In this document: piece after piece, positions 12,128-60,450 of the stretch
Numbering within the stretch: position 1 is the first letter of the stretch
How the letters are laid out: every line of letters starts with the position of its first letter
Assembly: GCA_963695555.1 (NCBI GenBank)
Contig: CAVOGR010000005.1
Coordinates: 192,001-256,000, forward strand
Source of the DNA: an uncultured Gemmatimonadales bacterium
GTDB taxonomy: Bacteria > Gemmatimonadota > Gemmatimonadetes > Gemmatimonadales > GWC2-71-9
Length of the DNA: 64,000 bases
Direction of reading: 5' to 3'
The notes under the pieces: model-generated
The model's input: the letters and a program-made list of their open reading frames with translations, nothing else
The model's database searches: none
What the model was told of the DNA's origin: nothing
Made by a program: the position numbers and the translations under genes

Positions 12128-12131
12128 GACC

Positions 12132-12221: not shown

Positions 12222-12227
12222 TTCAGT

Positions 12228-12259: not shown

Positions 12260-12283
12260 AACAAGCCTCCCCCGGAGCTTCCC

Positions 12284-25814: not shown

Positions 25815-25821
25815 TCGAGTG

Positions 25822-25859
25822 CAGGGTGTAGGAAGTAGGAATGTAGGTTGTAGGGAGAG
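25822..25859 (-). repeat. C-rich heptamer arm (CCTACnn on the minus strand) before the amidohydrolase start
   Basis: + strand cagggtg taggaag taggaatg taggttg tagggag. Confidence 0.8.
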
Positions 25860-25862
25860 AGG

Positions 25863-26645: not shown

Positions 26646-27505
26646 GGTGAGGTCCAGTCGTAGAATCCCTGCCCGGTCTTCTTGCCGAGCTTGCCCTCCG
26701 CGACGAGCTGCCGGAGGATGGCGGGAGGCTCGAACTGCGTGCCACCCAAGGTCCGATGGAGATATTCGGCGATGCTGAGCCGCACATCGAGGCCCACCAC
26801 GTCGGTCAGCCGAAGCGGGCCCATCGGGTGGTTGTAGCCCAATTCCATTGCCGTGTCGATATCGGCGGCGCTCGCAACTCCTTGCTCGAGCATGCGCATG
26901 GCCTCGAGGCCGAGGACCAGGCCAAGCCGGCTCGACGCAAATCCCGGGGAATCCTCGACGACGATGGGCTCCTTGCCCAAGCCCCGGACAACGGTCAGCG
27001 CCTCCTCCCGTGTCTCGGCAGAGGTGGACCCGTGCACGACGATCTCCACCAATTTCATGATATGGACGGGATTGAAGAAATGGAGGCCGAGGAATCGTTC
27101 GGGGCGGGGGAGGCGCTCGGCGATGCTGGCGATCGACAGGGACGACGTATTGGTGGCAAAGAGGGCATCCGCCTTCGCCGCGCGGGCCGCCCGAGCCAGA
27201 ACCTCCTGCTTGGCGGCCAGGTCCTCGACCACGGCCTCGATCACCACCTCGGTGCCATCGCAGGCGGCGGCAAGCGATGGCGCGAGCATGAGGCGTCCGA
27301 GTGCTGCACCGCGGCCCTCGTCGTCGAGCTTCCCGCGGGCTACGGCACCGTTCAGGTTGGCGCTGATCCGCTCGCGCGCTCGGGGTAGCGCGTCTGCTCG
27401 TGCGTCGGTGAGCCGGGTGCTCCAGCCGGCCACAGCGAACACCTGGGCGATGCCGGCGCCCATGGTTCCCGCCCCGATGACGGCAACAGTCCGGTCGTTG
27501 GTCAT
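26642..27505 (-). CDS. 3-hydroxyacyl-CoA dehydrogenase (PaaH-like)
   Basis: [30 protein letters not shown]; start MTNDRT at 27505. Confidence 0.92.
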
Positions 27506-28191
27506 CCTTCCCTCCGTCCCACGGCGGCGCGAATACGCTCGGGATAGTTGCCGCATATCCCGTCCACGCCGAGGCTCACGAGCCGCTCGATGTCCGCCTC
27601 TTCGTTCGCGGTCCAGGCAATGATACTGGCACCGGCACCATGTATGAGCGTGACGAGTTCGCGATCGATATACTGACGCGCCTGCCAGAGCGTGCTCGCT
27701 CCCGCCGCGGCTAGCAGTGGGCGGGCGTCGATGGGCCGGGAGGCGAGCAGAATCCCGCGCCGAAGCGAAGGCCGGGTGCGGCCAAGCCGAGCCACGATGC
27801 GGTGGTCGAAACTGTGGACGCTGGAGCGCGCTGGGAACGGTCCGGCATCGAGTTCGGCGAGGAAGCGCGAGTCGTGGCTGGGCGGCAGGCTCTTTATTTC
27901 GATCCACACGTCGCAATCGCCCAGGAGGCTCAGCACCTCGCCAAGCAACGGGACGGTCTCGCCGTTGGGAAGCTTGGTCCGGGTCACGGTCCGAGTGTCC
28001 AACTCCGCAATGATGCCGACCTCTGGCAGATCCGGATCGTGGTGAACCACCATGCCGCCATCGCCCGCGGCATGGACGTCAAGTTCGACCCCGTCGGCCC
28101 CGAGTTCGACCGCGCGGCGAAAGGCCTCCCGGGAGTTCTCGTACGCGTGTCCGGACGCACCCCGGTGGGCCAAGACCACGGCGCGGGCCAT
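27502..28191 (-). CDS. Glycerophosphodiester phosphodiesterase family protein
   Basis: AHRGAS...ENS, VELDV, HHD, IEIK, WTAN and GVDGI motifs. Confidence 0.9.
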
Positions 28192-28274
28192 GACGGCTAG
28201 GGCCTGGCGGGCCAGACGGGACGTCGGGCTGGTATGGGTGGAGACCCCAACCAGCCCGCGCTGATTGAGCGCAC

Positions 28275-29402
28275 TCAGTTCACGTCGAGATTACGTGCTT
28301 CGATCCAATCCGGCTCTTTGAATACGCCGCGCAGATACTCGCGATCTTCATCGGTCGGCGTGACCGAGGCGAGGTACGCCGGATAGGCTGCCTCGCTCTT
28401 CTCCTCTCCCGTGACGGCGAAACACTGCCCGGCGTAGGCGCCGATATGGCGGTTGAACTTGAGATCGGGCACACGCAGGTGTCGGTCGGGGTCTGCAATG
28501 GCCCGATTCAGCCGCTCCACCAGCCTGGACACCTCTTGGCGGTACAGTTCGCGGCTGGCCTCGTTCAGGTGGGCCACGTCGACGTTCATGTCGGTCTCGC
28601 GTTCGTCGAACCGACCCTTGAGCCCCCAGACGTAGGCCCAGTGGGCGCTCGAGGAGTTATCGGTCCCGAACAGATCGAACGCCGTGGGGACCCACTTGTT
28701 GAAATACCGCTGCATGATCTCCGGCGGGATCTTTCCAGCCCGAATGATGCGCAGCAATCCGTTGTTGCCGGTTCCCAGGTGGAAGCTCTCCTCCTTGAGC
28801 ATCGGGCCCATCGACCGGGCCAGCGGGTGAAACGCCGAGGTCGAGAGCATCTTGAGCTGGAACTTGCCGTCGCGGTCGATGAACTGGGTGTAGGTGAAGA
28901 AGTCGAGCCAGTTGTCGACGATTTCGTTGAACGACCCGAGCAGCCGCTGACCCTCCTGGGCCGTACGCTCGAGCAGCTTCTGGGCCTCGCGACGACCCTC
29001 GTCACCGAAGTGCTCGCAGAGCAGGTACGACATTTGCCAGCCGTGCCGCATCTCTTCCATCATGACCCGCATGATCGAGAAGAGGTCGTAGTCGCTGGGA
29101 GAGGTTTCCAACAGGTTCCGTTGTTGCTCCACGGAGGCAAACTCGGTGTCGCCCTGATAGACGATCAGATTGAGCAACGCATCGCGCACCCGCTGGTCGG
29201 GAATGTGCATCAGCGTCGGCCACTTGACCTGACCCTTGTAGTGGCCGAACTCGATGATTTCGACCTCGGGTGGCCCGAACTTCTCTTCGAAGGAAATCTT
29301 GGTGAACGGCGTGCCCTGGAATTCCTTGCTCGCGAGCCCGAGAGACTCCTGCCAGAAGCGGAAGTAATCGATCCAATCGTCCCAATTGTGTACCCGTCGC
29401 AT
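28275..29402 (-). CDS. BoxB-like di-iron aryl-CoA epoxidase subunit (PaaA/PaaC/BoxB ferritin-like family)
   Basis: QGDTE.ASVEQQR, EEMRH, DRDGKFQL and EESFH match benzoyl-CoA epoxidase BoxB motifs; 375 aa. Confidence 0.8.
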   Translation of the reverse strand: MRRVHNWDDWIDYFRFWQESLGLASKEFQGTPFTKISFEEKFGPPEVEIIEFGHYKGQVKWPTLMHIPDQRVRDALLNLIVYQGDTEFASVEQQRNLLETSPSDYDLFSIMRVMMEEMRHGWQMSYLLCEHFGDEGRREAQKLLERTAQEGQRLLGSFNEIVDNWLDFFTYTQFIDRDGKFQLKMLSTSAFHPLARSMGPMLKEESFHLGTGNNGLLRIIRAGKIPPEIMQRYFNKWVPTAFDLFGTDNSSSAHWAYVWGLKGRFDERETDMNVDVAHLNEASRELYRQEVSRLVERLNRAIADPDRHLRVPDLKFNRHIGAYAGQCFAVTGEEKSEAAYPAYLASVTPTDEDREYLRGVFKEPDWIEARNLDVN

Positions 29403-29413
29403 GAATTATTTCC

Positions 29414-30229
29414 TCATCGTCCGTGAAATTCCGGGTCGCGTTTGGAGGCAAACGCGGCGAGTCCTTCGGTCGCATCCTCACTTCTGAAACAGATCAACTG
29501 ATGTTCGGCCTCGCGCGCGAGGGCCGAGCCGAGATCGGAGTGCCGGCCGTGGTAGACCGCCTGCTTGACGAGGCTGACGGCGATGGGAGGCAAGGCCGCC
29601 AGGCGGGCCGCCCACTGGGCCGTCTCTTCAGCCAGCCGGTCGGCCGGGACCACTCGGTTTACCAGCCCGAGGTCGAGGCACCGCGCCGCCGTCACCATCT
29701 CGGTCGACCAGATGAGTTCGAGCGCTCGACTCGGACCCACCAATCGCGGCAGGAAATAGGTGCCACCCATGTCGGGATGGAGCCCGATCTTGTGGAACAC
29801 TTGTCCGATCGACGCGTCGGCGGCGGCGATCCTCAGATCGCACGCCAACGCCAGGTTGGCTCCGCCGCCGGCCGCGGGACCGTTGAGGCTCCCTAGCACA
29901 GGCTGGGGCGCCTGGCGGAGCAGCGCCACCAGCTCGCCGCCCGAGTGGACCAGGGCCATCGCGGCGTCCACATCCTGGCGCCCGAGCGCGTCTCCCATAA
30001 AGCGCACGTCCGCCCCGGCGCAAAAGGCTCGGCCCGCGCCGGTCACCACAATGGCGCGGACGCCTGGGTGATCGATGAGGCGCCGAGCGGCATCGACCAT
30101 TTCTTCGCGCATGATACCGTCGAACGCGTTGAGGCGCTCCGGGCGATTGAGCAGGAGCGTCCCGACACCGCTCCCGACCTGTGCCGTCACAAACTGGTGG
30201 CTGCCCAACGTGACGGGGCGGTCAGGCAT
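29414..30229 (-). CDS. Enoyl-CoA hydratase/isomerase (PaaG-like)
   Basis: [37 protein letters not shown] (Asp-type isomerase motif). Confidence 0.85.
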
Positions 30230-31424
30230 CGTCCATCCGTTCGATGATCATGGCCATGCCCTGTCCCACTCCGATGCACAGGGTGACGAGCCCGTAACGG
30301 CCACCGACACGACGGAGCCCAAACACCAGCGTCGTCAGCAGCTTGGCGCCGGTCGCACCGAGCGGGTGGCCCAGCGCGATGGCGCCGCCCGATACGTTGA
30401 CGCGCGCCGGATCGAGGCTCAGGTCACGGATGCAGGGAAGAGCCTGGGCCGCGAAGGCTTCATTGAGCTCGATCAGGTCGAGGTCCTCGACCCGAAGCCC
30501 AGCGCGTGCCAACGCCTTCCGCGTGGCCGGCACGGGCCCCAGTCCCATACAGCTCGGGTCGAGACCGGCCACCGCGGTCGTGACGATCCGGGCCAGCGGC
30601 GGAACGCCCGCTCGCCCGGCTGCGGCTTCGCTCATCACGACAAGCGCCGCGGCTCCATCGTTGATGCCACTCGAGTTCCCGGCCGTGACGGTGCCGCCCT
30701 CCTGAAACGCCGGCCGGAGCTTCGCCAGCTGCTCCGCGGTAACGTCTGGTCGGGGGTGCTCATCCACCAGGACCCTCGTTGTTGCGCCTTTCCTTCCGGG
30801 CACTTCCACCGCGACCAGTTCCTGGTCGAAGTGCCCCGCGGCCATGGCCGCCTGCGCGCGGCGTTGGCTTTCGAGCGCGAACGCGTCCTGGTCCTCCCGG
30901 GTCACGCTGTGCATCGCGGCAACACGCTCCGCGGTCTGCCCCAAGGAGATCGTCCAGTCAGGATTCATCCTGGGGTTCACGAACCGCCACCCGATGGTCG
31001 AGTCGGCCACCGACGGCGTGGCGCGGCCCCATGGTTGGTCGCTCTTGAGCATCACGTAGGGCGCCCTGGTCATGCTCTCGACGCCACCCGCAATGAAGAC
31101 GTCGCCCTCATTTGATCGAATTGCCTGGGCGGCACTGGCCACGGCCTGCAAGCCGGAGGCGCACAGGCGGTTGATGGTCTGCCCCGGCACCTCAACGGGT
31201 AGTCCGGCCAGGAGGGCCGCCATCCGTGCCACGTTCCGGTTGTCTTCGCCGGCCTGGTTGGTGCAGCCCAGAATGACGTCATCGATCTGGTCGACGGGCA
31301 ACGCGGAGCGGTCAACAACCGCGCGCACGACGTGACTTGCCAAGTCGTCCGCACGGACCGAGGCGAGCGCGCCGCCGGCCCGCCCCACGGGTGTCCGTAC
31401 CGCCGCCGTGATGAAGGCCTCCAT
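30222..31424 (-). CDS. Thiolase (PaaJ/PcaF, 3-oxoadipyl-CoA thiolase-like)
   Basis: [41 protein letters not shown]. Confidence 0.92.
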
Positions 31425-31451
31425 GCCGTGGCTCCTATCCGCAACGGCCGG

Positions 31452-32886
31452 TCATAACCCGACCCAGACCGTCTTCAACTCGGTGTAGTTGGTGAGGGCC
31501 TCGCGGCCGAGATCGCGGCCGAAGCCCGACTGCTTGTACCCGCCGAACGAAGCCGCGGGATCGTAGGCATTGTAGGTGTTGATCCAGACCGTCCCGGCTC
31601 GAAGCGCGGCGGCAACGCGGTGGGCCTTGGACACGTCACGGGTCCAGATGCCGGCCGCGAGCCCATACATCGATTGGTTGGCGAGCGCGACGGCTTCCTC
31701 CAGGTCATCGAACGCCATCACGGCCAGCACCGGACCGAAGATCTCGTCCCGCGCGATGGTCATGTCCGGGGTAACGGCATCGAACACGGTGGCCTCGACG
31801 AAGTATCCCTTGTCGTTGACTCGCGCAGAGTTTCCGCCCGCCACCAGCGTCGCGCCTTCCGACGTGCCTTGGCGGATGTAGTCGAGCACCCGGGTCTGTT
31901 GCGCGTGGGACACGATCGCCCCGAGCCGGGTCTCCTTCGCGAATGGATCACCGGGCACCAGTTTCTTGGCCCGTGCGGCCAACTCCTCCACCACCTGGTC
32001 CTTGACGGCGCGCTCGACGAGAAGGCGACTCCCGGCCGCGCAGACCTCGCCCTTGCCGTAGAAGATGCCGGTCTGGGCGCCCCGGATAGCCGCCTTCATG
32101 TCGGCGTCGGCGAAGATGAGGTTTGGGCTCTTGCCGCCCAGCTCCAGGGTCACCCGCTTCAGGGAGTCGGCGGCTTCGCGCATGATGGTGCGCCCCACCT
32201 CGGTCGAGCCGGTGAACGCGATCTTGTCGACGCCGGGGTGGCGAACCAAGGCAGCGCCGGCGGTTGGTCCAAATCCGGGCACCACATTGAGCGCCCCCGC
32301 CGGGAGGCCCGCCTCGCGAAGGAGTTCGGCCAGCACGAGTGCCGTGAGCGGGGTCTCCTCCGCCGGCTTGAGCACCACCGTGCACCCCGCCGCGATGCGC
32401 TGGGGCCACCTTCCAACTCGCCAGGTTGAGCGGGAAGTTCCACGGGACGATGGCACCGACCACGCCGACCGGCTCACGCAGGGTGTAGGTCAAATACGGC
32501 CCTTCGACCGGGATCGTCTCGCCCGTTATCTTGTCCGCCCACCCTGCGTAATACCGGAGCGTCTCGACGGTCATGGCGACGTCGATCTTCGACTCGAACA
32601 GCGGTTTGCCGTTCTGGAGCGTCTCGAGCCGGGCGATGTCGTCCAGGCTCGATTCCATCAAACTCGCGGCCCGGTACAGGATCGCCCCACGTTTGCGGCC
32701 GGAGAGTGTCTGCCAGTCGTCGGATTCGAAACACCGGCGGGACGACGCGACGGCGGCATCGATGTCGGGGGCATCGCCCTCCGCCACGCTGGCGAGGATC
32801 TCCTCCGTCGCCGGGTTGATGACGTCGAACCGCGCGCCGCCCGCCGCGGCCGAGAACGCGTTGTCGATGAAGATGTCGGTATGCAT
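31452..32886 (-). CDS. Aldehyde dehydrogenase, interrupted by a +1 frameshift near 32397 (likely artefact; ~477 aa if corrected)
   Basis: N-half (..IVPWNFP..WKVAPA) and C-half (IAAGCTVVLKP, LELGGKSP, EIFGPV) lie in adjacent frames; the junction reads gcg-C-atc. Confidence 0.85.
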
Positions 32887-33716
32887 TACACGGCTTTGAA
32901 CGTCGCCATGCGCTTCTCCACGTACGCGGCCAGCCCTTCCTTTGCGTCTTGCGATTGGAAGAGCTGCTGTTGGAGTTCGCGCTCGATACTCAACCCGCTC
33001 TCGAACGGCACTTCCGCACCGGACTGGACGGCGCGCTTGATCAGGCCGACGGCCTTCGATGCCTTGTTTGGCGGGCAGAATTGCTTGGCGTACATGAGGA
33101 CGTCGTCCCAGAAGGTGTCCTTCTCGAATACCTTGTTGACGATGCCCAGTTCCTCGGCCCGCTCGAACGAGAACGTCTCGCCGGTGGCCATGAGCTCAAT
33201 GGCGCGGGACTTGCCGACGATGCGGCAGAGCCGTTGGGTGCCGCCGGTGCCCGGCAAGACGCCCAGATTGACTTCGGGCAGGCCGATCTTCCCGGCATCC
33301 CGCCGCCCCAGCCGGAAGTCGCACGCCATGGCGATCTCGAGGCCCCCGCCGACCGTGTGTCCGTTGAGCGCGGCGATGGTCAGTTTGGGAGTCTGCTCGA
33401 GTCGGTTCAACGTCTCGTTAGCGTGTAGGCAGAAGTAATACTTGAACTTGGGCGTCACGCTGTTGAGCATGCCGATGTTGGCGCCGGCGGAAAAGAACTT
33501 ATTGCCCTCGCCGCGGAGGATGATCACATGGGCTTCGTCCGCCATGCGGGCATCGAGAATGGCCCGGTCGAGCTGCCGCATCATCTCGTAGGTGTAGGTG
33601 TTGGCCGGTGGATCGTTGAGCGTAATGATCGCGAGTCCATCGGTTACTTCGTAGTTGACCAAGACCTGGTCGGTCGGCGCTGGCGCACCTGGACGCTGGG
33701 TTACTGAAGTTGCCAA
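32886..33716 (-). CDS. Crotonase-family protein (candidate ring-opening hydrolase)
   Basis: FFSAGANI, GGGLEIAMACD, LPEVNLGVLPGTGG; TTG start. Confidence 0.85.
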   Translation of the reverse strand: MATSVTQRPGAPAPTDQVLVNYEVTDGLAIITLNDPPANTYTYEMMRQLDRAILDARMADEAHVIILRGEGNKFFSAGANIGMLNSVTPKFKYYFCLHANETLNRLEQTPKLTIAALNGHTVGGGLEIAMACDFRLGRRDAGKIGLPEVNLGVLPGTGGTQRLCRIVGKSRAIELMATGETFSFERAEELGIVNKVFEKDTFWDDVLMYAKQFCPPNKASKAVGLIKRAVQSGAEVPFESGLSIERELQQQLFQSQDAKEGLAAYVEKRMATFKAV

Positions 33717-33721
33717 GGGGA

Positions 33722-34330
33722 TTATCCTCCGTGCGAGGCGGCCAACGGTTGGGCCGCGTGGGATACAGGCTGCAGATACCCGTCGAGAAAGAGTCGGGCG
33801 ATCTCATCGGCCAAGTGTGCCGGCGGGATTTCGCCGCCGGGACGGTACCACGTGTAAATCCAATTCATCATGCCGAACAGCGCGTAGGCGGCAATTTGCG
33901 GGCTGACGTTCGGGACGTCGACCTTTTCGAGCAGCCCCGTCAGAAAGGCCACGTACTCCCGCTTGCGGGCGCGGATGGCGGTGGCCATGGTGCCGGTAAG
34001 CTCTTCGGCCTCGTGCGACAGCACTTTCATCTCCGGCATGTGGCCTGTGAAGAAGCCGACGTGATGCCGGACGAACGCGCCGAGGCGGGCCTCGGGGTCT
34101 GCTTCCTGAGCCACAGCCTCGCGGGCACCGCGGATGACGTCGGCGAAGCACCGCTCCTGAATGAGGAACAGCAGCTCGTGCTTGCTCTCGACGTAATGGT
34201 AGATGCCCGACAGGCTGAGCCCGGAGGCGCGCGAGAGGTCTCGCATGGACGTGCCGTGGAACCCGCGTTCCGCGAAGATCCGCGCTGCATCGGCCAGCAG
34301 GGTGTCGAGGCGATTGTCAGCAGTGGGCAA
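33722..34330 (-). CDS. TetR family regulator (PaaR/KstR2-like)
   Basis: N-terminal HTH A..FAERGFHGTSMRDL...G.IYHY..SK; C-terminal GMMNWIYTWYRP. Confidence 0.9.
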   Translation of the reverse strand: MPTADNRLDTLLADAARIFAERGFHGTSMRDLSRASGLSLSGIYHYVESKHELLFLIQERCFADVIRGAREAVAQEADPEARLGAFVRHHVGFFTGHMPEMKVLSHEAEELTGTMATAIRARKREYVAFLTGLLEKVDVPNVSPQIAAYALFGMMNWIYTWYRPGGEIPPAHLADEIARLFLDGYLQPVSHAAQPLAASHGG

Positions 34331-39151: not shown

Positions 39152-39200
39152 ACTCCTTACTCCTTACTGTACTGTCCCCACTCCTTACTCCCTACTCCCT
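39152..39200 (-). repeat. G-rich heptamer arm overlapping the carH-like stop codon
   Basis: Minus strand agggagt agggagt aaggagt ... aaggagt aaggagt. Confidence 0.8.
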
Positions 39201-40154
39201 CTTCCCTTCATTGTAGTCCCGCAGGAACTGCCTGAGTTCGCTCAGGCTTCCAAAGGGAGTGATGCCGAGCCGCTCGAAGTCTCGTGCGACTGGGGCCGCT
39301 CCGCTCCCACCGACGACAATCGTAGCACGTCCGCCGAGTTCCTTCTTCAAGGCCGCCGCATCCTCGAGGAGGCGGCGCGACTCGATCGGAAAGACTGAGC
39401 TCAGGGCGAGGACGTCGGCTTCCAATGACTTGGCCGCGCGCGCGATGTCGAGCGGCGGGAGATCCGCTCCGAGATAGGTCACCTGCCACCCCTCGGCGGC
39501 CGCCGTCCCCGCGGCCAGCATCGCGCCGAACTCATGCCGGTCGCCCGACATGGTGGCGACCACAAACCGTCGGGCGCTCCGCGAAGGCCGGTAGGCTTCC
39601 CGCGTCCAGGTGAGTACCTGGTGGATGACAGCGGAGGCGGCATGCTCATGAGCCGGCGTGAGGGTACCGGCATGCCAGCTCTCGCCGATGTAGCGGAGCA
39701 GCGGCGTCACGACTTCCTCGATCAGCCCGGTGGCGCCCAGGGTCATGGCCGCCTGCCGCAGCGTCAGGTGCAGGCGGGCGGTGTCGAGCTTCTCGATGGC
39801 CTCTTCAGCCCGGTCGACGAAGCCCGCCGCCGCGCGACCATTCTGCCCTGCGTTGAGTGAGGGCGCGACTGCCTGGCGGGCCCGGTCATCGGCCTCAATC
39901 AGGTCCCGCAATTCGTCGTTGGACGCTCCGGCCACCCGGCTGATCGAGCGACCGCCCAGGCTGGCGCGGTGCAACAAGTCCAACCGTTCGATGTCGGCGT
40001 CCGAGTAGAGCCGCTGCCCGCCATCACTGCGGCCGGGCTCCACCACCGCGTACCGCCGTTCCCAGACCCGGAGCAGGTCAGGACTCAGGCCGGTCCGAAG
40101 GGCGACGACCCGTATTGGGTGACGTGGCTCGGAGAAATCATGATCATTTGACAT
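39192..40154 (-). CDS. CarH/LitR-like MerR-family B12-binding (photo)regulator
   Basis: MerR HTH (LRVWERRY, R.YS..D); W-x9-EH motif (WHAGTLTPAHEH); DRHEFG cobalamin-binding motif. Confidence 0.88.
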   Translation of the reverse strand: MSNDHDFSEPRHPIRVVALRTGLSPDLLRVWERRYAVVEPGRSDGGQRLYSDADIERLDLLHRASLGGRSISRVAGASNDELRDLIEADDRARQAVAPSLNAGQNGRAAAGFVDRAEEAIEKLDTARLHLTLRQAAMTLGATGLIEEVVTPLLRYIGESWHAGTLTPAHEHAASAVIHQVLTWTREAYRPSRSARRFVVATMSGDRHEFGAMLAAGTAAAEGWQVTYLGADLPPLDIARAAKSLEADVLALSSVFPIESRRLLEDAAALKKELGGRATIVVGGSGAAPVARDFERLGITPFGSLSELRQFLRDYNEGKRE

Positions 40155-40160: not shown

Positions 40161-40239
40161 AATCTAGGAGGCCGTCCAATCCTTGTCAATATTTGAACTT
40201 GGTCAGATACTTGACAAACCGTGTCCAAATAGCTACTTT
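40161..40239. promoter_or_regulatory. Divergent promoters with 11-bp-spaced CarH-type operator repeats
   Basis: Plus strand TTGACA(40211)-17-TACTTT; minus strand TTGACA(40189)-17-TAGATT; TGGTCA/TTGACA/TGTCCA at 40200, 40211 and 40222. Confidence 0.6.
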
Positions 40240-40359
40240 TCCTGGGCATGGGTTGGACAGTGGTCTTGGGCAATCCTGGACCTCGAGGGCGAGGAGGTCG
40301 GTACTGCTGGTGGGATAGGAAAAGTCATCTACTCGAACACTCTCAGAAGGAGCAACACA

Positions 40360-40857
40360 ATGCGGTCAAAGATTCTCGCTGGGTTGGCGGTTGCCTCGTT
40401 GGCGATTGCGGGCAGCGCTCAGGCTCAGCAGAAGTACTCCGAGGCCAAGCAGGCGGACATCGTGGATGTCGCCATTGCGGCCGGTTCCTTTAACACGCTG
40501 GCCACGGCGCTCGAGGCGGCCGGGTTGGTGGAGACGCTCAAGGGCAGTGGTCCGTTCACCGTCTTTGCGCCGACCGATGAGGCCTTCGCCAAGATTCCAA
40601 AGGAAACCTTGAATGCGTTGCTGGCCGACAAAGAGAAGCTCACGGCCGTTCTGACTTACCATGTCGTCCCCGGTAAGGTCATGGCCAAGCAGGTCATGGG
40701 GCTCAAGAACGCCACGACGGTCAACGGCCAGGACGTCACCTTCATGATCCATGACGGGAAGGTGATGGTGGACAACGCAACGGTAGTGAAGGCCGATATC
40801 GAGGCGTCGAATGGCGTGATCCACGTCATCGACTCCGTGATCCTGCCGAAGAACTAG
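40360..40857 (+). CDS. Secreted fasciclin (FAS1) domain protein
   Basis: Signal peptide; [40 protein letters not shown]. Confidence 0.93.
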
Positions 40858-40930: not shown

Positions 40931-40951
40931 ACCACTCCCTACTCCCTACTC
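40931..40951 (-). repeat. G-rich heptamer arm overlapping the slt stop codon
   Basis: Minus strand gag TAG ggagtagggagtggt. Confidence 0.75.
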
Positions 40952-43294
40952 AGGCTCCCACGAATACAGCATTCGGTAGACATCACGATTGCGGAGTACT
41001 GCGCGAACGTAGCCCCGGGTCTCGCGAAAGGGAATGCGCTCGGTGAAGACTTCGAGATCCTCGGATCCCGGCCGCATCTCCCAGCGGTCCACTCGCGACG
41101 TACCGGCGTTGTAGGCCGCGAGGACATGCGTGAGATTGGCCGATCGGCTCAGGAGATCTTCCAGATGCTTCACGCCAAGTTGCAGGCTCACATCGGGCTG
41201 GTACAACAGCACCGGATCCCAGAACGGAAAGCCCTGGGCCCGGGCCACCCGCCGACCGACATCCGGCATGATCTGCATCAGCCCGCGGGCGCCGGCCCGG
41301 GACGTTGCGGTGGGGTCGAAGTTGGACTCCTGGCGGATGAGCCCGGCCACCAGGGCCGGCTCAACACCGTGGGTACGGGCCAATTCGAGAATGCCATCCC
41401 GCTGGAGAATGGGATAGAGCAGCCTGAGAGTGCGAGCGTCCATCTGGGCGCCAAGGTCGACGGCGCGCCATGCCAACCGGATGGCCCGGGACACGCTCCC
41501 GATCCGGCTCAGACTCTCGGCCACTGCCAGCGTCATGTCCGCCGATTTGCCGGCTGACTCGGCGAGGGCCGCCTCCTCCATCTCGGCCTCCTCGCTGAGC
41601 CCGATCCGGCGGAGCAGCTCAATCCGGGCCGCGGCGCTGTCGGCTGCCGGGTAGCTCTGTCTCGAATCCGGCGCCGGCGGAATCGAGAGCGTGATACCGA
41701 GGCGGCGTGCGCTCAGGAATCCGTAATAGCTCCAAGGCTCCCGCTCGATGACGCGGTGCCAGCGTGCCTCGGCGGCCACGCTGTCGCCGGCGAGTTGCCA
41801 CGCCCGGCCGGCCCAGTAGAGCCCGGCCAGGGCCTCGGAGCTTGCCGCGTGCCTGTTGGACACCGTATCTAACTCGAAAGCGGCGGCGCGCGCCTGGCCG
41901 CCGACCAGGGCGATCAGTGCCGCTTGAAAACGCGCCGACGGGGCGTACGGACTCTCGGGCAACGCGGCGGCCGCCGCCCGATACGTTGCACGGGCCGCCT
42001 CGTCCCGTCCCTCATCGATGGCCAGATCTGACAGGAGGATCCGGGCGCGCACCGCGGCGAGCTCTCCGGGATAGGTGCGCAATATGTCGCGGAGGGCATC
42101 CCGGCTGCCGCCCAGTCCACCGCGGAGCAGAGACCGGGCTCTGAGATATGCCGCGTCGGCGGCCAGGCTCTTCGGCGCCTTGACCCTCTCGAATTGGGCT
42201 GCGGCCTCCGGATATTTCCCGAGCGACGCCAATGCGGAGCCGAAGGCGTAGCGGTCGCGCGCGGTACCACGACCGGCTGCGAAGGCACGGCGATACCCGG
42301 TAGCGGCCCGCGCGGTCATCCCGACGATGGACGCTGCCCGCGCCAGTACGAGCTCGTCCTCGGCCCCCAAGGCCTTGAACCTGCGATCGAGCAACGCGAT
42401 GGCGGGGCCAACAGCGTTGCGGGGGCGCTGGGTGGTGAGAATGTCGAGCAGCTCACGGCGAACGGCCTGTTCCCCGGCCGCCGTCCGAGCGAGATCCAGC
42501 TCGAGGTCGAGGGCGGCCGGCAGCTCGTTGGCCGCGCGGTAGATTCGGATGGCCGCGCTGGTGTCGCCGGTCGAAAGCCGGGCGTCGGCCTCGGTGGCCG
42601 AGATGCGGGACCGGACGGCCGGCAGGGTCAGCCGGTCATACACCGCGAACCGGTGGGCACTGTCGGCCGTTACCCCGGCCGCGCGGAGCAATAACCATTG
42701 CGCGACCAGCGGCAGTTCTTCGGCCGCCTCGCGATAGGCCTGGGCGGCGCTGTCGGGCGGTCCGACCCGCTCGTAGGCCCGCGCCAGCACGACCAATCGC
42801 TCGGCCCAATCGGGAGCATCGATCGTGGCCGCGGCTCGACGGGCGTGGCCGATTGCCGCGGAGTCGTCGGTCCGCTCGAGCGCCGCCCGCGCCAAGAGCG
42901 CCCGGGCGCGCCCCTGGAAGAGGGTATCCACCCACGTGTGATCGGCCAGGATTTGTTCGATGTGGTCCCAGCCGCTCCAGCCATTCGCCGCCTCGGCGGC
43001 AACCAGGACGGCCTCCGGTGTCCGCCTGGCCGTATCGGCGACGATCGGCTCGAGACGCAGCGTGGCCCGCCACGGCAGACCCTTGGCGATGTCGGCCCGG
43101 GCCGAGTCGACCGCTCGGTCGGAGGCTCGGGACAGGGTGGAGGACGTGAGCGGGACCGCGTCCGACTGCCCGCACGCCACTCCCGCGAAGGCCGATGCCA
43201 GGAGTCCCAGCAGGAGAGACTGGGGTGGGGGAAGGGGGATCGGCGGTGGCATGGGGAGGGGTCGTCTCCACTGGGCGGCGGTGTGCTGCGGCAC
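40946..43294 (-). CDS. Soluble lytic transglycosylase (Slt70-like) with TPR-like repeats
   Basis: IRQESNF, GARGLMQIMP, AAYNAG, ETRGYV motifs; start uncertain. Confidence 0.9.
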   Translation of the reverse strand: MPQHTAAQWRRPLPMPPPIPLPPPQSLLLGLLASAFAGVACGQSDAVPLTSSTLSRASDRAVDSARADIAKGLPWRATLRLEPIVADTARRTPEAVLVAAEAANGWSGWDHIEQILADHTWVDTLFQGRARALLARAALERTDDSAAIGHARRAAATIDAPDWAERLVVLARAYERVGPPDSAAQAYREAAEELPLVAQWLLLRAAGVTADSAHRFAVYDRLTLPAVRSRISATEADARLSTGDTSAAIRIYRAANELPAALDLELDLARTAAGEQAVRRELLDILTTQRPRNAVGPAIALLDRRFKALGAEDELVLARAASIVGMTARAATGYRRAFAAGRGTARDRYAFGSALASLGKYPEAAAQFERVKAPKSLAADAAYLRARSLLRGGLGGSRDALRDILRTYPGELAAVRARILLSDLAIDEGRDEAARATYRAAAAALPESPYAPSARFQAALIALVGGQARAAAFELDTVSNRHAASSEALAGLYWAGRAWQLAGDSVAAEARWHRVIEREPWSYYGFLSARRLGITLSIPPAPDSRQSYPAADSAAARIELLRRIGLSEEAEMEEAALAESAGKSADMTLAVAESLSRIGSVSRAIRLAWRAVDLGAQMDARTLRLLYPILQRDGILELARTHGVEPALVAGLIRQESNFDPTATSRAGARGLMQIMPDVGRRVARAQGFPFWDPVLLYQPDVSLQLGVKHLEDLLSRSANLTHVLAAYNAGTSRVDRWEMRPGSEDLEVFTERIPFRETRGYVRAVLRNRDVYRMLYSWEPE

Positions 43295-43365: not shown

Positions 43366-46024
43366 TCATAGCGATTCGAAGCGTCCCTGGAAGAAACGCA
43401 ACTTGGCCGGCTCATAGACGAACCGCAGTCCCGTGATTTGCTGGCGCCGCTCATACAGTCGGATGACGCCCTCCGCCACGGCCTGCATGTGATCGTTACT
43501 GTAGACCCGGCGTGGGATGGTGAGGCGCACCAACTCCAAGGCCGGACGGTAGTTTTCCCCGGTCTCCGGATTTCGTCCTTTCGACACGTTGCCGCGTTCC
43601 ATCGCGCGGACACCGGTCTCGACGAAGATTTCCGCTGCGAGCCGCTGGGCGGGATACTCGTCCTGGTCGAGGTGGGAGAGGAATCGTTTGGCATCGAGGA
43701 AGATGGCGTGGCTCCCAGGCGGGACGACGATGGGGACGCCCGCATCTAGCAGCAGTTGCCCGAGATATGCGGTCTGCCGCACTCGCGAGCTGATGTACCG
43801 GTCATCGACCATCTCCTCGACCCCGCGCGCGATGGCCGCGAGATCGGCCGTGGCGAGTCCGCCGTCCGTGATGTTGCCCTCATAGACCCGGAGCAGGTCC
43901 TGGGCCTTTCGTGCCCATTCCGCGTTCTCGCGGAAGGCGAGGATGCCGCCGATGTTGATCAAGAAGTCTTTCTTCCCGCTCACCGTGCAGCCGTCCCCGT
44001 AGAGCATCATCTCCCGGAGAATGTCCGCCACTTTGACGTGATGGTACTTCGGGTCCCGGGATTGGATCATGTAGGCGTTCTCGGCAAACCGGGTGGCATC
44101 GAAGAAGATCGGGATGCCCGCGGCGCTGCAATACTCGTACACCTCCTTCATGTTCTGCATGCTCACCGGCTGGCCGCCCGCCATGTTGACCGAGTGTTCG
44201 AACGAGATGTAGGCAACGTTTGAGGCGCCGTGACGCTCGACCACGGCCTCGAGCTTCTCCAGGTCGATGTTCCCCTTCCACGGGTAGTCGAGTTCCGGCC
44301 GATGGGCCTCATCCACGATCACGTCGACGAACACGCCACCCGCGAACTCCTGGTGCAGCTTGGTGGTGGTGAAGTACATGTTGCCGGGCACCAGTTGCCC
44401 GGGCGTGATCATGATCTGGCTCAGGATGTGCTCCGCGGCCCGACCCTGATGGGTCGGGATGATGTGTTCGTAGCCGATCACGTCGCGCAGCACTTTGACG
44501 AGTCGGAGGTACTCGTCACTGGAAGTTGCGCTGGCGCGCGCGCCGTCGTATGCAGCCCATTGCGCATGGCTCATGGCCGAGGTGCCGGAATCGGTCAGCA
44601 GGTCGATGGCGACGTCCGCCGAGCGCAGCAGGAAGGTGTTGTAGCCGGCGGCGCGGATGGCCCGCTCGCGTTCGCCGCGGGTCAGTACACCCACCCGTTC
44701 CACCGTATGGATCTCGATAGGGGAAGACGTCGAAGGCAAAGGTCTCCAGCTCGGGGAAGATCCACCGGTATTCCATCTGATCGCGCCAGCTTCCCTCAAC
44801 CGTGGCCTGGAGCCCGCTCACCGCCTCACGCTGGCGATAGAGGCTGATGATAGCGTTTCCGACCTCATCGAGTTGTTCGTTGGTCATGGCCAGGCGCGGG
44901 ATCTGCACCGGCACGAGCCGGTCTCGTCCTACCAGCCCCTGCGCGAGGGCACGCACACCCGATATCAGAAACAGCGCAGCGGAGAGGGTATCCTGCGCAT
45001 GCCGGCCGACGTGCGGGAGGAACTCGTCGGCCTTGAGGTAGGCGCCGTCGCACCCGCGTTCGATCGGCACGCCCGCGTCGCGGAGTCGCTCGGTGAATCG
45101 CTCGGTTTGATGCATGACCCAGTGGACCTCGTCCTCATCACACATTTCCCGGAGACCCCGAGCCAGCACCTCCATCGTGCGCCCGGCCATGCCGCCGTAC
45201 GTGTGGAGGCCTTCGAAGACCACGACTTCGTTCACGAACTTCTCATGATCATCCGGATTGTCGGTGGTCAGGAGGCCACCGGTGTTGCACTTGGGGTCCT
45301 GGGCTCCATCGACCATCAGGATGTGGGTGGTCTTGACGATGTGGCGTACGATGTCGGCGATGGCACGATCGGCCTGGCCTGGTTCGTGGCGTTGGATGTA
45401 CCAGGCGTTTTCGATGATCCGGGAGCCGTCGCAGACCAGCCGCTTGCCGTACCGGTCGGCGAGGGCACGGAGGGCACGGAGATTCGTCAGGCTGAAGGGG
45501 TGTTGGCCATCGGCAAAGGTTTGGAGCCCGACGATGGCGACTCCAGCCTGTTGGAGGATCTTTTCGAGCTTGCCGAGGTCCACGTTGCCCGTGAAGACCC
45601 GCTCCGCGAGGTCGCGTACGTGGGGATAGGCCACCCCCAGCGGTTGGAGGACGTCCATGCCGGTGCGAGCGTTACTGGGGATCACGGAATCGGGGGGCAC
45701 CATCGTCGTGAGGACCAATTTCAGACAGCCCAGCATATTGTGGGTGGGGCAGACATAGCCATGCCCGAGGACCGCGGTAACCGCTTGTTCCAGCGATCCG
45801 AAATTCCGCGACCCCGCATAGGCTTCGTCGCCAATCAGCTGGCCGGCTAGTTGCTCCTGGCTCATGGCGCCGGTGCCCCGGGCACACATGTCGAAGGTGA
45901 CCTGGGTCGGTGTCAGGTTGAAGACATTGAAATGCGCTGCCGCCAGGTGCTGCTTCCGCTCCTCGAGCGAAGGGAATGAGAGGAGCCTGACGGTTTTGAT
46001 CTTGTGCGGCTCGTGCGGCACCAT
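43366..46024 (-). CDS. tpl: Tandem two-domain tyrosine phenol-lyase-like protein (~885 aa) with a +1 frameshift near 44716
   Basis: Two complete beta-eliminating lyase domains. The C-domain has DLLTDSGT, THQGR, NMYFTTT, SGKKD, ERG and LRFF (TPL-type). Start MVPHEPHKIK follows GGAGGA. Confidence 0.8.
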
Positions 46025-46279
46025 GGATCCTCCGGACATCGGGACGAAATCTCCGGCCGTGGACTCGCTCTGCCAGGCGTCTCGGGGCAGGCGCCGCGCG
46101 GGCCCGGCAGGCCGCTGAGGAAGATGGGCGGCCGGGGCCAACGAAATGGTGAAGCCAGTGTGAAGCGGTATTCCAGGAGACTACGCCAGCCATACCCTGG
46201 GCGCACAAGCGTTTCGCTGCTGCGGAGCGTGCCCCGTCGCGCTTGCGAATTCACGGCGCTCCGGACAGGTTTTGGCCGG

Positions 46280-46362
46280 GCCCGAGTGGCGGAATGGCAG
46301 ACGCAGTGGACTCAAAATCCACCGGGGGCAACCCCGTGCGAGTTCGACTCTCGCCTCGGGCA
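46280..46362 (+). tRNA. tRNA-Leu(CAA)
   Basis: Acceptor GCCCGAG/CTCGGGC, D-loop GGAATGGCAGAC, anticodon arm GTGGA-CTCAAAA-TCCAC, long variable arm GGGGCAACCCC, TTCGA loop; CCA not encoded. Confidence 0.95.
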
Positions 46363-46442
46363 CTGGCAATATTTCCGGCGCCTTCTCTGGGCCAGTGATT
46401 ACGGTCTGCGCTCCCGTCCCGAATCTTGAGGCCGGCTCCCCC

Positions 46443-49796: not shown

Positions 49797-51464
49797 CTAC
49801 GAGCCCTGCTGCAGCACCGCCATCCCCTGCTCGAACACGATGTCGACCGGAATCCCCGCGGTCGCCAGGCGATCCAGGTCGGCCTGGAGCTCGGGCCCGA
49901 TGGTGCCGTACTTCTCCATGTAGTCCTGGACTCCGTAGTAGTCGCCGTCGCCCTGATAGGTCAGGATCTTGGCCGAGAGCGCGTCCATGGCCTCCCGCAT
50001 CTTGGCAAAGTCCACCCGGTAGGTGCCGGTGGCCGGATCGCGGCTGAACGCACCCATCTCCTTGAAGAAGTTGAACCGGGCGACGTTGGCCCGACCATGT
50101 GCGCTCGAGGCGCCAAATCGGATCGAGCGGAAGATGCTGGCCATGAAGGTGACCAGGTTGTCGTTGAGATCCTCATTCGCGAGTTCATTCATTTCGTGGA
50201 GCTTGGTCACCATGTAGAGGCCCAGCACATCGGCCTTGCCCTCTTCGAGGGCGGAGGCCTCCTCCTTCAGCGCCTGGCGCACGGTGCCGCGGCCGTCGAG
50301 CGTGTTCTTGATGCCGAGCCCATGCGCCACCTCGTGGAACATGACGTTGCCGAAGAAGGCGTCGAAGGTGACGTGCTGCCGCTGGTCCTCGGCGATGAGC
50401 ATGCCGGCGATCGGTACCAGAATACGATCGAACTTGGCCCGCATGGCATTCTTGAGCTGGAGGCGCCGAGTCCCCTTCGCCAGCTGCACTTCCTCGTCGT
50501 TGGGCAGGTTGATCGCGATGGTCTTGGATCCGGCGTTGGCCTGACCCGCGTAGTAGACCACGTCGTACGCGTTGAGATCGGCATCCGTGCCCGGCTTCTC
50601 GCGTCGGTACTGGGCCGGGACCGGCAACCCGCGCTGAAGGGCCGGCAGTAGCGCCGCATAGCGCGACAACCGGCGGCTCCATTCCTTGTCCTTGACGAGG
50701 ACGACGCCTTCGTGCGCCGCCTTGTAGCCGTAGAGCTGGTCTTCGTATGTCTCGATCGGCCCCACCACGATGTCGATCCCATTGTCCTTCATGTCCATCC
50801 AGGCGACGTCGCTCGGCTGATAGTCGTCACTCAGCAACGCGTCGGCGCGGAGATTCAGGTACTGCTTGAGCCCGGGGTCATCGGCCAACTCAGCCGCCGC
50901 GCGAAGGTTCTGGGCCGCTCGGCCGTGCTCCGCGGCATAGGCCTCGGAGTAGGGCACGGTGGTCAGGGCACGGTTCTGGTCACGCCGCACCAACGTGTAG
51001 AGGCTCTTGAGCGCCGCCACCCGCTCGGGTCGAGCATCGAGCGCGGCCTCGAACTCGCCCTTGGACATGTCCGCCGGGTAGAAATTGGCGCCGGCCGGCT
51101 TGGGTCCGACGCCCGGAAGGAAGGGGGCGTCGCCGTCCACCCGGTCCCAAGGGCCGTAGTTGATCTCGGCGAAGCGTCGGAGCTGGGGGTCAGCGATCGA
51201 CGCGAGCAGGCTGTCCTTGTTGCCGTACGCTTGCTTCCAGTAGACGCGGTTCATTTCGCGCGCCGCCTCGATCAGGAGCGGCAGCATCTGCCGCTCATGC
51301 TCGGACAACTGGCTCATGTCGGTGGTGAGGCGCACGGAGGTGTACTTGTCGGTGAGCGCCGCGGACTCGGTGCTCCCACCGCCCGGGGTCGCCCGGTCGG
51401 CGCGGCACGCCGCGGCGAAGAGAGTGATCAGTCCGAGGGTGAGGTATAACGGCATCCGACGCAT
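49797..51464 (-). CDS. Peptidase M49 (dipeptidyl-peptidase III-like) lipoprotein
   Basis: Lipobox AAAC; GPIETYED, NLPND, HEVAH and EEGKAD motifs. Confidence 0.85.
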   Translation of the reverse strand: MRRMPLYLTLGLITLFAAACRADRATPGGGSTESAALTDKYTSVRLTTDMSQLSEHERQMLPLLIEAAREMNRVYWKQAYGNKDSLLASIADPQLRRFAEINYGPWDRVDGDAPFLPGVGPKPAGANFYPADMSKGEFEAALDARPERVAALKSLYTLVRRDQNRALTTVPYSEAYAAEHGRAAQNLRAAAELADDPGLKQYLNLRADALLSDDYQPSDVAWMDMKDNGIDIVVGPIETYEDQLYGYKAAHEGVVLVKDKEWSRRLSRYAALLPALQRGLPVPAQYRREKPGTDADLNAYDVVYYAGQANAGSKTIAINLPNDEEVQLAKGTRRLQLKNAMRAKFDRILVPIAGMLIAEDQRQHVTFDAFFGNVMFHEVAHGLGIKNTLDGRGTVRQALKEEASALEEGKADVLGLYMVTKLHEMNELANEDLNDNLVTFMASIFRSIRFGASSAHGRANVARFNFFKEMGAFSRDPATGTYRVDFAKMREAMDALSAKILTYQGDGDYYGVQDYMEKYGTIGPELQADLDRLATAGIPVDIVFEQGMAVLQQGS

Positions 51465-51641
51465 GCTCGACTCCGAGAATTGGTAGAGTAGCCTGGAAGA
51501 TAGGGCGCGACAGACGCAGGCGGGAGCCACCCGCCTCGCGGCTCTGTTGGTCTCGCGCGGGCTCTGGCTCACGCGGGTTGGAAAAACGCGGGGCGGCTCA
51601 GCGGCCCCCCCGCGTTCCACCCCAACCAACGAGGGAGGTAG

Positions 51642-59253: not shown

Positions 59254-60450
59254 GTGCTGGCGGGACGCCGCGTCCTCCTCGGTCTTTCGGGTGGGATTGC
59301 CAGCTATAAGAGCTGCTATCTCGCCCGGGCTCTGACGGAACGCGGCGCGTTGGTTACCACCGTCATGACACGCGGGGCCGCCGAGTTCGTCGGCCCCGCC
59401 ACCTTTGAGGCGCTCACGCACCAGCCCGTGCTCCGCTCGGTCTGGGAACCAGGCCATGCGCTCGATCACGTGCGATTGGCGCAGGAGTCCGATCTCATCG
59501 TTGTCGCCCCGGCCACCGCGCATGTGATAGCCCGCGCGGCCCAAGGGTTGGCCGATGATCTACTGACGACCATCCTGGTTGCGGCCACCGTCCCCATTCT
59601 CATGGCGCCCGCGATGAACGACGCCATGTTCGCCCACCCCGCGACCCGGGCGAATCTCGCGACGCTCGAGTCACGCGGCGTGCGGTTCGTCGGGCCTGAT
59701 GCCGGGGCCTTGGCGGAAGGACCCTCCAGCCTGCCGGGCCGGATGAGCGAACCCGACGTGATCCTGGCCCACGTGCTTCGGTTGTTGGCCGGGAGCGGCC
59801 CGCTCAGCGGTCGGCGAGTGTTGGTGACCGCCGGCCCCACGCGGGAAGCGATCGACCCCATTCGGTTCTTGAGCAATCGGTCGAGCGGTCTGATGGGGCA
59901 TCGTCTGGCGGAGGTGGCATGGGAGCGCGGCGCCGATGTCACGTTGATCACCGGGCCGACCGCACTGCCGGCCCCGGTCGGTGCCCGCGTCGTGCGGATC
60001 GAGACCACGCGTGAACTCGAAGACGCGGTTCGCCGCGAATTACCCCAAGCCGACGTGCTCATCATGGCTGCCGCGCCCTCGGATTATCGCCCAACCTCGG
60101 CGAGCGATACCAAGCGACCACGCAGCACGGGCGATTGGTCGCTCCCGCTCGAACCGACGGCCGATATCCTGAGCGCGACCCGCGCCGTGCGCAAGGCGGG
60201 AAGCATCATCGTTGGGTTCGCGCTGGAAACCGGGGACGCCCTGGCGAAGGGGCGCACCAAGCTCGAGCAGAAGGGGCTCGATCTGATCGTGATCAACGAC
60301 GCCCTGGAGCCCGGCGCGGGTTTCGATGTCGACACCAACCGCGTGACGATCGTGTCCAAGACCCACGACGAATGGGACCTTCCGCTGCAATCGAAACGCG
60401 ACGTTGCGGTCGGCATCCTCGAGCGAGTGGAGCGGTATCTTGTCCCTTAG
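59254..60450 (+). CDS. coaBC: Bifunctional phosphopantothenoylcysteine decarboxylase/synthetase
   Basis: GGIASYK, APATA, PAMN, TAGPTREAIDPIRFLSNRSSG, GFALET. Confidence 0.95.
   Translation: MLAGRRVLLGLSGGIASYKSCYLARALTERGALVTTVMTRGAAEFVGPATFEALTHQPVLRSVWEPGHALDHVRLAQESDLIVVAPATAHVIARAAQGLADDLLTTILVAATVPILMAPAMNDAMFAHPATRANLATLESRGVRFVGPDAGALAEGPSSLPGRMSEPDVILAHVLRLLAGSGPLSGRRVLVTAGPTREAIDPIRFLSNRSSGLMGHRLAEVAWERGADVTLITGPTALPAPVGARVVRIETTRELEDAVRRELPQADVLIMAAAPSDYRPTSASDTKRPRSTGDWSLPLEPTADILSATRAVRKAGSIIVGFALETGDALAKGRTKLEQKGLDLIVINDALEPGAGFDVDTNRVTIVSKTHDEWDLPLQSKRDVAVGILERVERYLVP

Follow-up and report, generated by a model that had tools for sequence, protein, structure and literature searches.

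A fused lyase gene occupies positions 43366..46024 of the minus strand in a 64,000 nts stretch of DNA from an uncultured Gemmatimonadales bacterium (contig CAVOGR010000005.1 of assembly GCA_963695555.1; the whole stretch is referred to below as the window). This gene quite probably encodes a single-chain pseudo-heterodimeric tyrosine phenol-lyase (TPL) with one composite active site per chain, and alignment places it in a conserved family of ~885-amino acid (aa) single-chain 'tandem' TPLs. As judged from its residues, the C-terminal half (C-half) holds everything that a TPL subunit gives to its own site, namely the lysine that binds pyridoxal 5′-phosphate (PLP), the ring and phosphate binders, the Arg404 equivalent and the specificity residues, and is without both of the tyrosine-bearing loops that a subunit lends to the site of its partner. 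The N-terminal half (N-half) can be read as the mirror image, in which the lysine and most of the residues acting in cis are gone and both loops are unchanged.

Organization of the fused lyase

The gene consists of 885 codons and a stop, with one surplus base at 44716; without this base, the product is an 885-aa protein that is 98% identical to the intact 885-aa homologue P0001. The ATG start codon (46024-46022) is preceded at 3 nts by a ribosome-binding-like motif, GGAGGA (46028..46033, minus strand), read from the sequence, and a start at 46024 agrees with the homologue N-terminus MVPHEPH. Two overlapping open frames in different phases cover the locus on the minus strand, at 44516..46141 (541 aa) and 43366..44799 (477 aa).

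An initial annotation, made from the DNA letters, had described two full beta-eliminating-lyase domains in tandem. A Pfam search bears this out, as PF01212 (Beta_elim_lyase) was found in both halves, with 241.3 bits in the C-half and 92.8 bits in the N-half (Pfam cut-off 27); no other Pfam family was matched in this search, which places the fused lyase outside the GcvP family. With the surplus base removed, the N-half (residues 1-436; 44717..46024, minus strand), a degenerate domain or pseudo-subunit, is followed without a linker by the TPL-like catalytic C-half (residues 437-885; 43369..44715, minus strand; stop codon 43366-43368). Among solved structures, the TPL 1c7g is aligned by the C-half over residues 7-454, end to end (E 2e-161), and the TPL 9j3u is matched by the N-half (E 1e-61); in P0001, residues 433-883 align with TPL residues 5-454. 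All of the solved relatives (22/22) are single-domain chains of 455-569 aa.

Reciprocal loss of active-site motifs

TPL residue equivalents were taken from the alignment of the C-half to 1c7g, and conservation was read from an alignment of 127 rows. The latter combines 116 of the 120 homologues retained as the best of 7725 protein matches with eleven divergent fused proteins of 847-928 aa added from a library of 50%-identity representatives; P0069 (partial) and the near copies P0082, P0086 and P0089 were left out. The main family, family A, accounts for 123 of these rows.

The motifs named in the initial annotation were all found in place, each on the minus strand. In the C-half, a motif scan located THQGR (44440-44454) and DATR (44089-44100), and scan and alignment together identified MERG (residues 808-811; 43591..43602; Met379/Arg381 equivalents), RLTIPRR (residues 833-839; 43507..43527), which includes the carboxylate-binding Arg404 equivalent, and LRFF (residues 875-878; 43390..43401; Phe448/Phe449 equivalents). 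NMYFTTT (residues 548-554; 44362..44382), with the equivalents of Phe123 and of Thr124, a TPL-type specificity residue, is kept in 100% of the family-A rows. In the alignment to 1c7g, the PLP-binding Lys257 equivalent is K685 (43969-43971), within SGKKD (residues 682-686; 43966..43980). The same alignment shows what this half has lost: GDEAYAGS is replaced by GARASATS (residues 494-501; 44521..44544), with Ser at the Tyr71 position and Arg at the Glu69 position, and EGMPSYGG is replaced by EGNITDGG (residues 715-722; 43858..43881), with Asp at the Tyr291 position.

The N-half is the converse. By motif scan and alignment, it carries GDEAYAGS (residues 65-72; 45809..45832), with the Glu69/Tyr71 equivalents and hence the trans-acting general-acid tyrosine, as well as EGLHTYGG (residues 271-278; 45191..45214), the second trans-acting loop, with the Met288/Tyr291 equivalents. 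At the position of SGKKD, the structure alignment places DGAQD (residues 239-243; 45296..45310), with Gln instead of Lys257, and the motif scan found PTHNMLG (45728-45748) in place of PTHQGRG and VPVQIPRL (44891-44914) in place of VRLTIPRR. Taken together, the cis binders of PLP and substrate (Lys257, Asp214, Arg217, Asn185, Arg100 and Arg404) are all present in the C-half, at 100% in the 123 family-A rows, and are missing or altered in the N-half. Tyr71 and Tyr291, which belong to every subunit of a TPL, are both carried by the N-half only.

A proposed composite active site

The cation site of TPL uses Glu69 of the partner subunit. Passages of PMC10170061 describe TPL Tyr71 as the general acid and Arg381 as the base, with Thr124 fixing the phenol hydroxyl and Lys257 binding PLP. 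Contributions across the dimer are reported for tryptophanase: in the tryptophan indole-lyase of P. vulgaris, Tyr-72* from the other chain of the catalytic dimer lies 3.3-3.9 Å from the substrate C3 (excerpts of PMC11301627), and E. coli tryptophanase uses the Tyr74 and Tyr307 hydroxyls of one subunit to bind the PLP phosphate in the adjacent one (excerpts of PMC2770544). According to sections of PMC5805759, five residues set TPL apart from tryptophanase (Thr124, Met288, Met379, Arg381 and Phe448) and TPL Met288 is the counterpart of E. coli Phe304, hence Tyr307 would correspond to TPL Tyr291. In view of these roles across the dimer, the N-half has kept exactly the cross-dimer residues and the C-half exactly the within-subunit ones.

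We propose that the N- and C-half pack like the catalytic dimer of TPL and tryptophanase, such that Tyr69 and Tyr276 of the N-half would complete the PLP site of the C-half. Each chain would contain one working site, one dead site and one PLP, and, as neither N-terminal arm has been lost, two chains would probably pair as a pseudo-tetramer. The reaction would likely be the conversion of tyrosine into phenol, pyruvate and ammonium, and tyrosine cleavage appears the likeliest activity of the fused lyase. The specificity residues are indeed of the TPL type rather than the tryptophanase type, as had been proposed at the outset from the Thr, Arg and Phe equivalents on the C-half. Four of the five are provided in cis by the C-half (NMYFTTT, MERG and LRFF) and position 288 by the N-half, where it is Leu, as in the single-domain environmental TPLs P0145 and L040; Thr and Phe stand in the C-half where tryptophanase has indole binders of the Asp137/His463 type. 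We further lean towards a more general statement, that a widespread class of TPL is an obligate single-chain pseudo-heterodimer whose dead N-paralogue survives only as the donor of two tyrosine loops and a cation ligand of the Glu69 type, all serving the single PLP site in the C-half.

Conservation of the fused family

Intact fused homologues exist, as 119 of the best 120 protein matches measure 866-925 aa and the remaining one is a 749-aa partial sequence. In their source records they are named 'tryptophanase', which is frequent, or 'tyrosine phenol-lyase', and they come from Gemmatimonadota, Eisenbacteria, Acidobacteriota and others. A genome search with one genome per species found 597 stretches encoding a relative, of which the best 80 were kept. 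Among these 80, the match is longer than one domain at 32 loci, with a single open reading frame (ORF) spanning both halves at 23 (four of the 23 being cut by contig ends) and two adjacent genes at nine. The one-ORF loci carry labels of at least seven phyla. Within the phylum of the window, the N-half type has a patchy distribution, being present in 8/301 genomes and 7/127 genera.

The reciprocal loss suspected in the window is conserved in these homologues, with 99-100% conservation of the trans motifs in the N-half and of the cis motifs in the C-half across the 123 family-A proteins. Invariant positions in 127/127 rows are G65, D66, E67, Y69, A70, G71, E271, G272, Y276, G277 and G278 in the N-half, and TDSGT, HQGR, N548, F551, T554, V612, N613, D642, T644, R645, S682, K684, K685, D686, R833, R838 and R839 in the C-half. 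Within family A, the N-half positions at 100% also include L273 and T275, and those of the C-half comprise TDSGT, HQGR, NMYFTTT, VN, D642/T644/R645, S682/K684/K685/D686, MERG, R833 and R838/R839. The mirror positions, by comparison, vary across the 123 rows. In the C-half, Ser stands at the Tyr71 position in 74% of them, where seven divergent lineages read T, R, T, S, A, T and Y, and Asp stands at the Tyr291 position in 94%, with S, N or Q otherwise. In the N-half, 96% have Gln at the Lys257 position, where the divergent lineages read Q, D, Q, E, Q, E and K. The reciprocal pattern is conserved and is not what random decay would leave.

The N-half evolves faster than the C-half, with identities in the divergent lineages of 27-38% for N-halves vs 52-64% for C-halves, and its trans loops are unchanged. 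The initial annotation had allowed for an N-half that is a pseudogene. It is not one, as the ratio of nonsynonymous to synonymous substitutions (dN/dS) between the window gene and its orthologue P0002 in the same-genus genome G023 is 0.083 in this half, compared with 0.093 in the C-half. Purifying selection acts on both halves.

An allosteric or ligand-sensing function of the dead site had also been suggested as a possibility. Such a role, in which the degenerate pocket of the N-half would bind an effector or non-covalent PLP and the N-half would mainly serve to control the C-half, is doubtful. In the core family, the pocket positions D239, G240, Q242, D243, S117, N118, R120, D172, G173 and P176 are at least 90% conserved, the Asp214 equivalent is kept in 97% of N-halves, and part of PMC7259800 proposes non-covalent PLP binding for the N-half of glycine decarboxylase. 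However, conservation of the pocket in the core family is no higher than that of the N-half overall (mean 0.79), and the seven divergent family-A lineages differ there, not only at the Lys257 position but also at the Arg404 position, which reads P, A, N, G, A, F and Y, while the Asn185 region is not alignable. The trans motifs are invariant, unlike these pocket positions. As the pocket differs between lineages, no conserved second pocket is apparent, and an allosteric dead site is therefore unsupported.

Alternatively, the C-half could work without the tyrosines of the N-half, through C:C pairing between chains or by means of another acid, and the N-half would be a scaffold or solubility domain. 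The retention of activity by Tyr71Phe TPL on substrates with good leaving groups counts for this possibility, which we nevertheless regard as very unlikely: it leaves unexplained why two trans loops are invariant in every row of the alignment while the surrounding half evolves faster, and a C:C dimer would be without both tyrosines at both sites.

The surplus base at the joint of the halves

The surplus base (44716..44716, c on the minus strand) stands exactly at the joint of the halves and shifts the frame. The joint reads ...FAFDVFPYEIHTVERV... in homologues such as P0001, and the window reads tat-c-gag at 44719-44713. The initial annotation had suspected one base too many at 44716/44717 and a product of ~885 aa, and both were confirmed. 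Base 44716 is absent from the homologues, from the sole bridging contig of each of 4/4 public metagenome runs of different studies, which represent relatives and not the source sample, and from the syntenic genome G023, in which the frame is open for 986 codons.

The quality of the assemblies bears on this base. The genome assembly of the window (G000; 14 contigs, 3.57 Mb, 87% complete) was surveyed for frame breaks by tblastn with 624 ORFs from other loci. Among the 35 genomic loci that were well enough covered to be judged, six have a frame change, namely two lyases and 4/33 others. The second lyase, a single-domain beta-eliminating lyase of the tryptophanase type, is located at G000:C7:61328-62693 (L003 1468-3055, minus strand); it carries the motifs NNNHFDTT, SAKKD, GDESYAG, FVTYGG and LRHF, and its one-base frame change is near L003 2377. 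In the window itself, the alignment of 38 kb with G023 revealed an aldehyde dehydrogenase gene (31452-32886, minus strand) that is split by surplus base 32398. Its two overlapping frames cover positions 7-150 and 147-461 of the Pfam profile, and the G023 orthologue is whole (579 aa); a plus-strand ORF lying over this gene (32065-33438) has no Pfam match and is probably spurious. In turn, G023 (L085/L086, G023:C2:108001-148000) has three genes broken by single-base differences that are whole in the window, encoding an SLT transglycosylase (40946-43294), an M49 peptidase (49797-51629) and a fasciclin-domain protein (40183-40857). The assemblies of G000 and G023 both look error-prone. We consider the frameshift at 44716 a likely assembly error, and since this is its most likely cause, the organism most likely makes the intact protein.

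GATC occurs near two of three error sites of the window and G000; it is found 7.4 times per kb, and no conclusion was drawn from this proximity. A genome-wide scan for frame errors by stop-to-stop overlap yielded 476 candidates, mostly ordinary adjacent genes, and was dropped.

If the frameshift were real, the fused lyase would be a recently inactivated pseudogene in this organism, perhaps along with its single-domain tryptophanase-like paralogue, which is rather unlikely. It is true that both lyases of G000 have a one-base frame change (2/2, vs 4/33 other genes), that base 44716 lies outside any homopolymer and that losses do occur, the fused family being found in 8/301 genomes of the phylum. 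However, the 2.66 kb of the lyase gene contain no second lesion, and the 18 residues (of 885) at which the protein and P0001 disagree all fall in variable columns. Of the 338 columns conserved at ≥95%, 337 are kept, and P0001 has the same change at the only column that departs from the consensus. A dN/dS of 0.08-0.09, the similar surplus base in the aldehyde dehydrogenase gene 12 kb away and the three other genes of the same stretch that are broken in G023 likewise argue for error-prone assemblies and against a pseudogene.

Programmed frameshifting could also read through the shift, or the halves could be made as two polypeptides that assemble, in keeping with a break exactly at the joint and with the in-frame GTG codons that follow in the C frame. 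Either arrangement is barely credible, as all relatives, including those that are 96-98% identical, encode a single chain without the surplus base, tat-c-gag shows no evident slippery heptamer, and the N frame would bear a 66-residue out-of-frame tail overlapping the C-half by ~200 nts. Furthermore, no natural stand-alone N-like subunit was seen among the 16 short relatives inspected from a second protein search (242-772 aa), which are fragments, 'partial' records or frames with out-of-frame tails. Arg/Pro/Ala-rich out-of-frame tails are present in P0288, P0304, P0319, P0320, P0336 and P0355, from contigs of 40 kb to 3 Mb; because of such tails, frame changes in long-contig assemblies appear to have broken the fused gene time and again, leaving shorter proteins that are annotated as 'lyase-related'.

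Several observations weigh against the proposal that this organism makes a fused TPL with one composite site and a dead N-half. At the background rate, frame changes in both lyases of G000 would arise by chance in about 3% of cases. The source reads were not found, as 20 runs hold part of the stretch with a best word share of 0.30. In the N-half, the cis-type residues P93, H95, G99, S201, R358 and P376 are at 100% and D199 at 97%, so residual ligand binding in the dead site is possible. Finally, the C-half alone reaches 622.1 bits with TIGR02618, the NCBIfam TPL equivalog (cut-off 720.7), and the N-half alone 252.3 bits; only the whole fused protein exceeds the cut-off, with 875.7 bits for the intact P0001, a score reached only by summing two stretches. 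Since the C-half alone is below this cut-off, the identity of the substrate is deduced from residues. The tryptophanase equivalog TIGR02617 (cut-off 825.8) is not reached either by the C-half (408.5 bits) or by P0001 (599.7 bits).

Single-domain relatives and the origin of the fused lyases

The nine loci with two adjacent genes could have held a split pseudo-pair. This was ruled out in the seven of the nine that were examined, where both genes encode complete enzymes, one of the tryptophanase type and one of the TPL type, each with the lysine and both tyrosines; L039 and L049 were omitted, as their first gene is cut by a contig end. At the Bacteroidota-type loci L028, L033, L040, L051, L060 and L073, the two complete genes follow each other head to tail. 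The genes of such pairs are spaced by 6-90 nts, with a slight overlap in L051, and their order is reversed in L048 (Planctomycetota). Among plasmid records, 92 match the N-half, all at <60% identity (33-34% for the ten listed) and each in a single match of ~440 residues, which makes them resemble ordinary single-domain lyases. The clusters listed from the ESM Atlas are all single-domain (458-482 aa).

Most economically, the gene would have arisen by duplication or fusion, with degenerative complementation afterwards: once one half had lost its trans residues, the site of the other half would have been dead and then decayed. In a careful tree, the 14 N-halves and 14 C-halves of family A each form one group (100/97*, 98/94*), the two groups agree for the most part in their inner order, and single-domain TPLs are the sister group of the C-halves (94/97). 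Matching half trees fit one fusion followed by joint evolution.

A second fused set consists of P0132, P0133, P0136 and P0139 (864-909 aa). Their C-halves are not TPL-like (GNQPFTTT; MERG and LRFF absent), SGKK is present in three of the four N-halves, and in the C-halves the Tyr291 equivalent is gone and Tyr71 is kept in two of four. This set may stem from a fusion of its own, or it may show the same decay at an earlier point. In a quick tree, its N-halves grouped with tryptophanase-like singles; in the careful tree, all 18 N-halves fall to the same side of a branch (95/99*), possibly through long-branch attraction. Keeping all 18 C-halves together costs 16.2 log-likelihood units (lnL), with a p-value of 0.04 in the approximately unbiased test (p-AU). 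The fused lyases may have had one origin or two. If the second set was indeed caught at an earlier stage, it would show in which order the steps of degenerative complementation took place.

Comparison with known enzymes

Literature searches for fused or tandem TPL or tryptophanase found nothing relevant, and the fused design is conserved and apparently undescribed. One of the closest enzymes is TPL itself (EC 4.1.99.2; Citrobacter freundii and Erwinia herbicola; PDB 1c7g, 2ez1 and 1tpl), with which the C-half aligns end to end and of which it keeps the equivalents of Lys257, Lys256, Asp214, Arg217, Asn185, Arg100, Phe123, Thr124, Met379, Arg381, Arg404 and Phe448/449. The N-half keeps Glu69/Tyr71 and the 286-293 loop as EGLHTYGG, a form shared with single-domain environmental TPLs. 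Known TPLs assemble identical ~456-aa subunits into a homotetramer that has four equivalent sites, whereas the fused lyase has unequal halves in one 885-aa chain. Tryptophanase (EC 4.1.99.1; E. coli and Proteus vulgaris) belongs to the same fold family, and its Tyr74/Tyr72* and Tyr307 act across the catalytic dimer (excerpts of PMC2770544 and PMC11301627); it differs by Asp137, Ile396 and His463, in place of which the fused lyase has Thr, Arg and Phe (sections of PMC5805759).

In concept, the closest precedent is the P-protein of glycine decarboxylase (GcvP/GLDC). Passages of PMC7259800 describe a ~1000-aa chain of two homologous fold-type I halves, with the PLP lysine in the C-terminal half only and a glutamine at the lysine position in the N-terminal half, where the window N-half likewise has Gln; the same passages report split alpha/beta forms in some bacteria and archaea, and none was found for the fused lyase. 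Like GcvP, the fused lyase has two homologous halves per chain, the lysine in one and conserved complementary residues in the other. The P-protein nonetheless belongs to another family (no PF01212), carries out a decarboxylation with H-protein and stems from a different, older duplication.

Another parallel is serine palmitoyltransferase, whose LCB1 is without the lysine. Part of PMC5371807 presents LCB1/LCB2 as a heterodimer of a lysine-bearing subunit and a paralogue, encoded by one fused gene in most Emiliania huxleyi viruses. This enzyme is an alpha-oxoamine synthase, membrane-associated and eukaryotic or viral, and its kinship with the fused lyase is one of fold type only. Hence, the initial statement that no enzyme with this architecture is described stands for this lyase family in the literature searched, but not for the principle, which is already described for the P-protein and LCB1/LCB2 in the portions cited.

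Both TPL and tryptophanase, familiar from textbooks as PLP enzymes and from industry as catalysts (L-DOPA), have been described only in the form of symmetric homotetramers. If the proposal is right, the fused lyase would be a naturally occurring 'one site from two domains' enzyme among lyases believed to be symmetric homotetramers throughout. Cis and trans parts of the active site on linked halves separate roles that mutagenesis of a homo-oligomer cannot, as a change in the N-half would touch the trans contribution alone. The family would also offer a clean example of subfunctionalisation within a single polypeptide, rich in sequences and parallel to the P-protein of glycine decarboxylase, and could be used to test whether asymmetry is adaptive or a neutral ratchet. 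For annotation, the names 'tryptophanase' and 'tyrosine phenol-lyase' leave the dead half unmentioned, and in long-read assemblies frame errors often divide the gene into two. Candidate phenol producers of soils and sediments would be added in Gemmatimonadota, Acidobacteriota, Eisenbacteria, Planctomycetota and others. A search for phenol hydroxylase (PF02332) was uninformative, as neither G000 nor any of the control genomes gave a match.

Genomic surroundings

The fused lyase gene appears to stand alone in the window, flanked by tRNA-Leu(CAA) and the SLT transglycosylase gene. No conserved partner gene was found near it among 92 flanking ORFs from the window and 11 loci; an Rrf2 regulator is directly upstream in 2/11 loci (L017 and L048) and 3.5 kb off in L073, which is too weak to use. 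The tRNA-Leu(CAA) (46280-46363, plus strand) lies ~250 nts upstream of the lyase start, and the MgtC ORF called from 46272 must therefore start later. A tRNA-Gly(GCC) is encoded at 59696-59782 (plus strand).

Elsewhere in the window, positions 7049-13591 (plus strand) encode a carbon-nitrogen hydrolase, a cytosine/purine-type permease and a dihydropyrimidine-dehydrogenase-like pair made of two genes (Fer4_20/Pyr_redox_2, then DHO_dh/Fer4_21), which looks like a reductive pyrimidine catabolism cluster. The region 24936-34330, mostly on the minus strand, is an aromatic or fatty acyl-CoA degradation cluster with an amidohydrolase, three enoyl-CoA hydratases, a 3-hydroxyacyl-CoA dehydrogenase, a PaaA/PaaC-like protein, a thiolase, the broken aldehyde dehydrogenase and a TetR regulator. 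At 39192-40154 (minus strand), adjoining the fasciclin-domain gene, a regulator of the MerR type carries B12-binding domains and resembles CarH, a light or B12 sensor.

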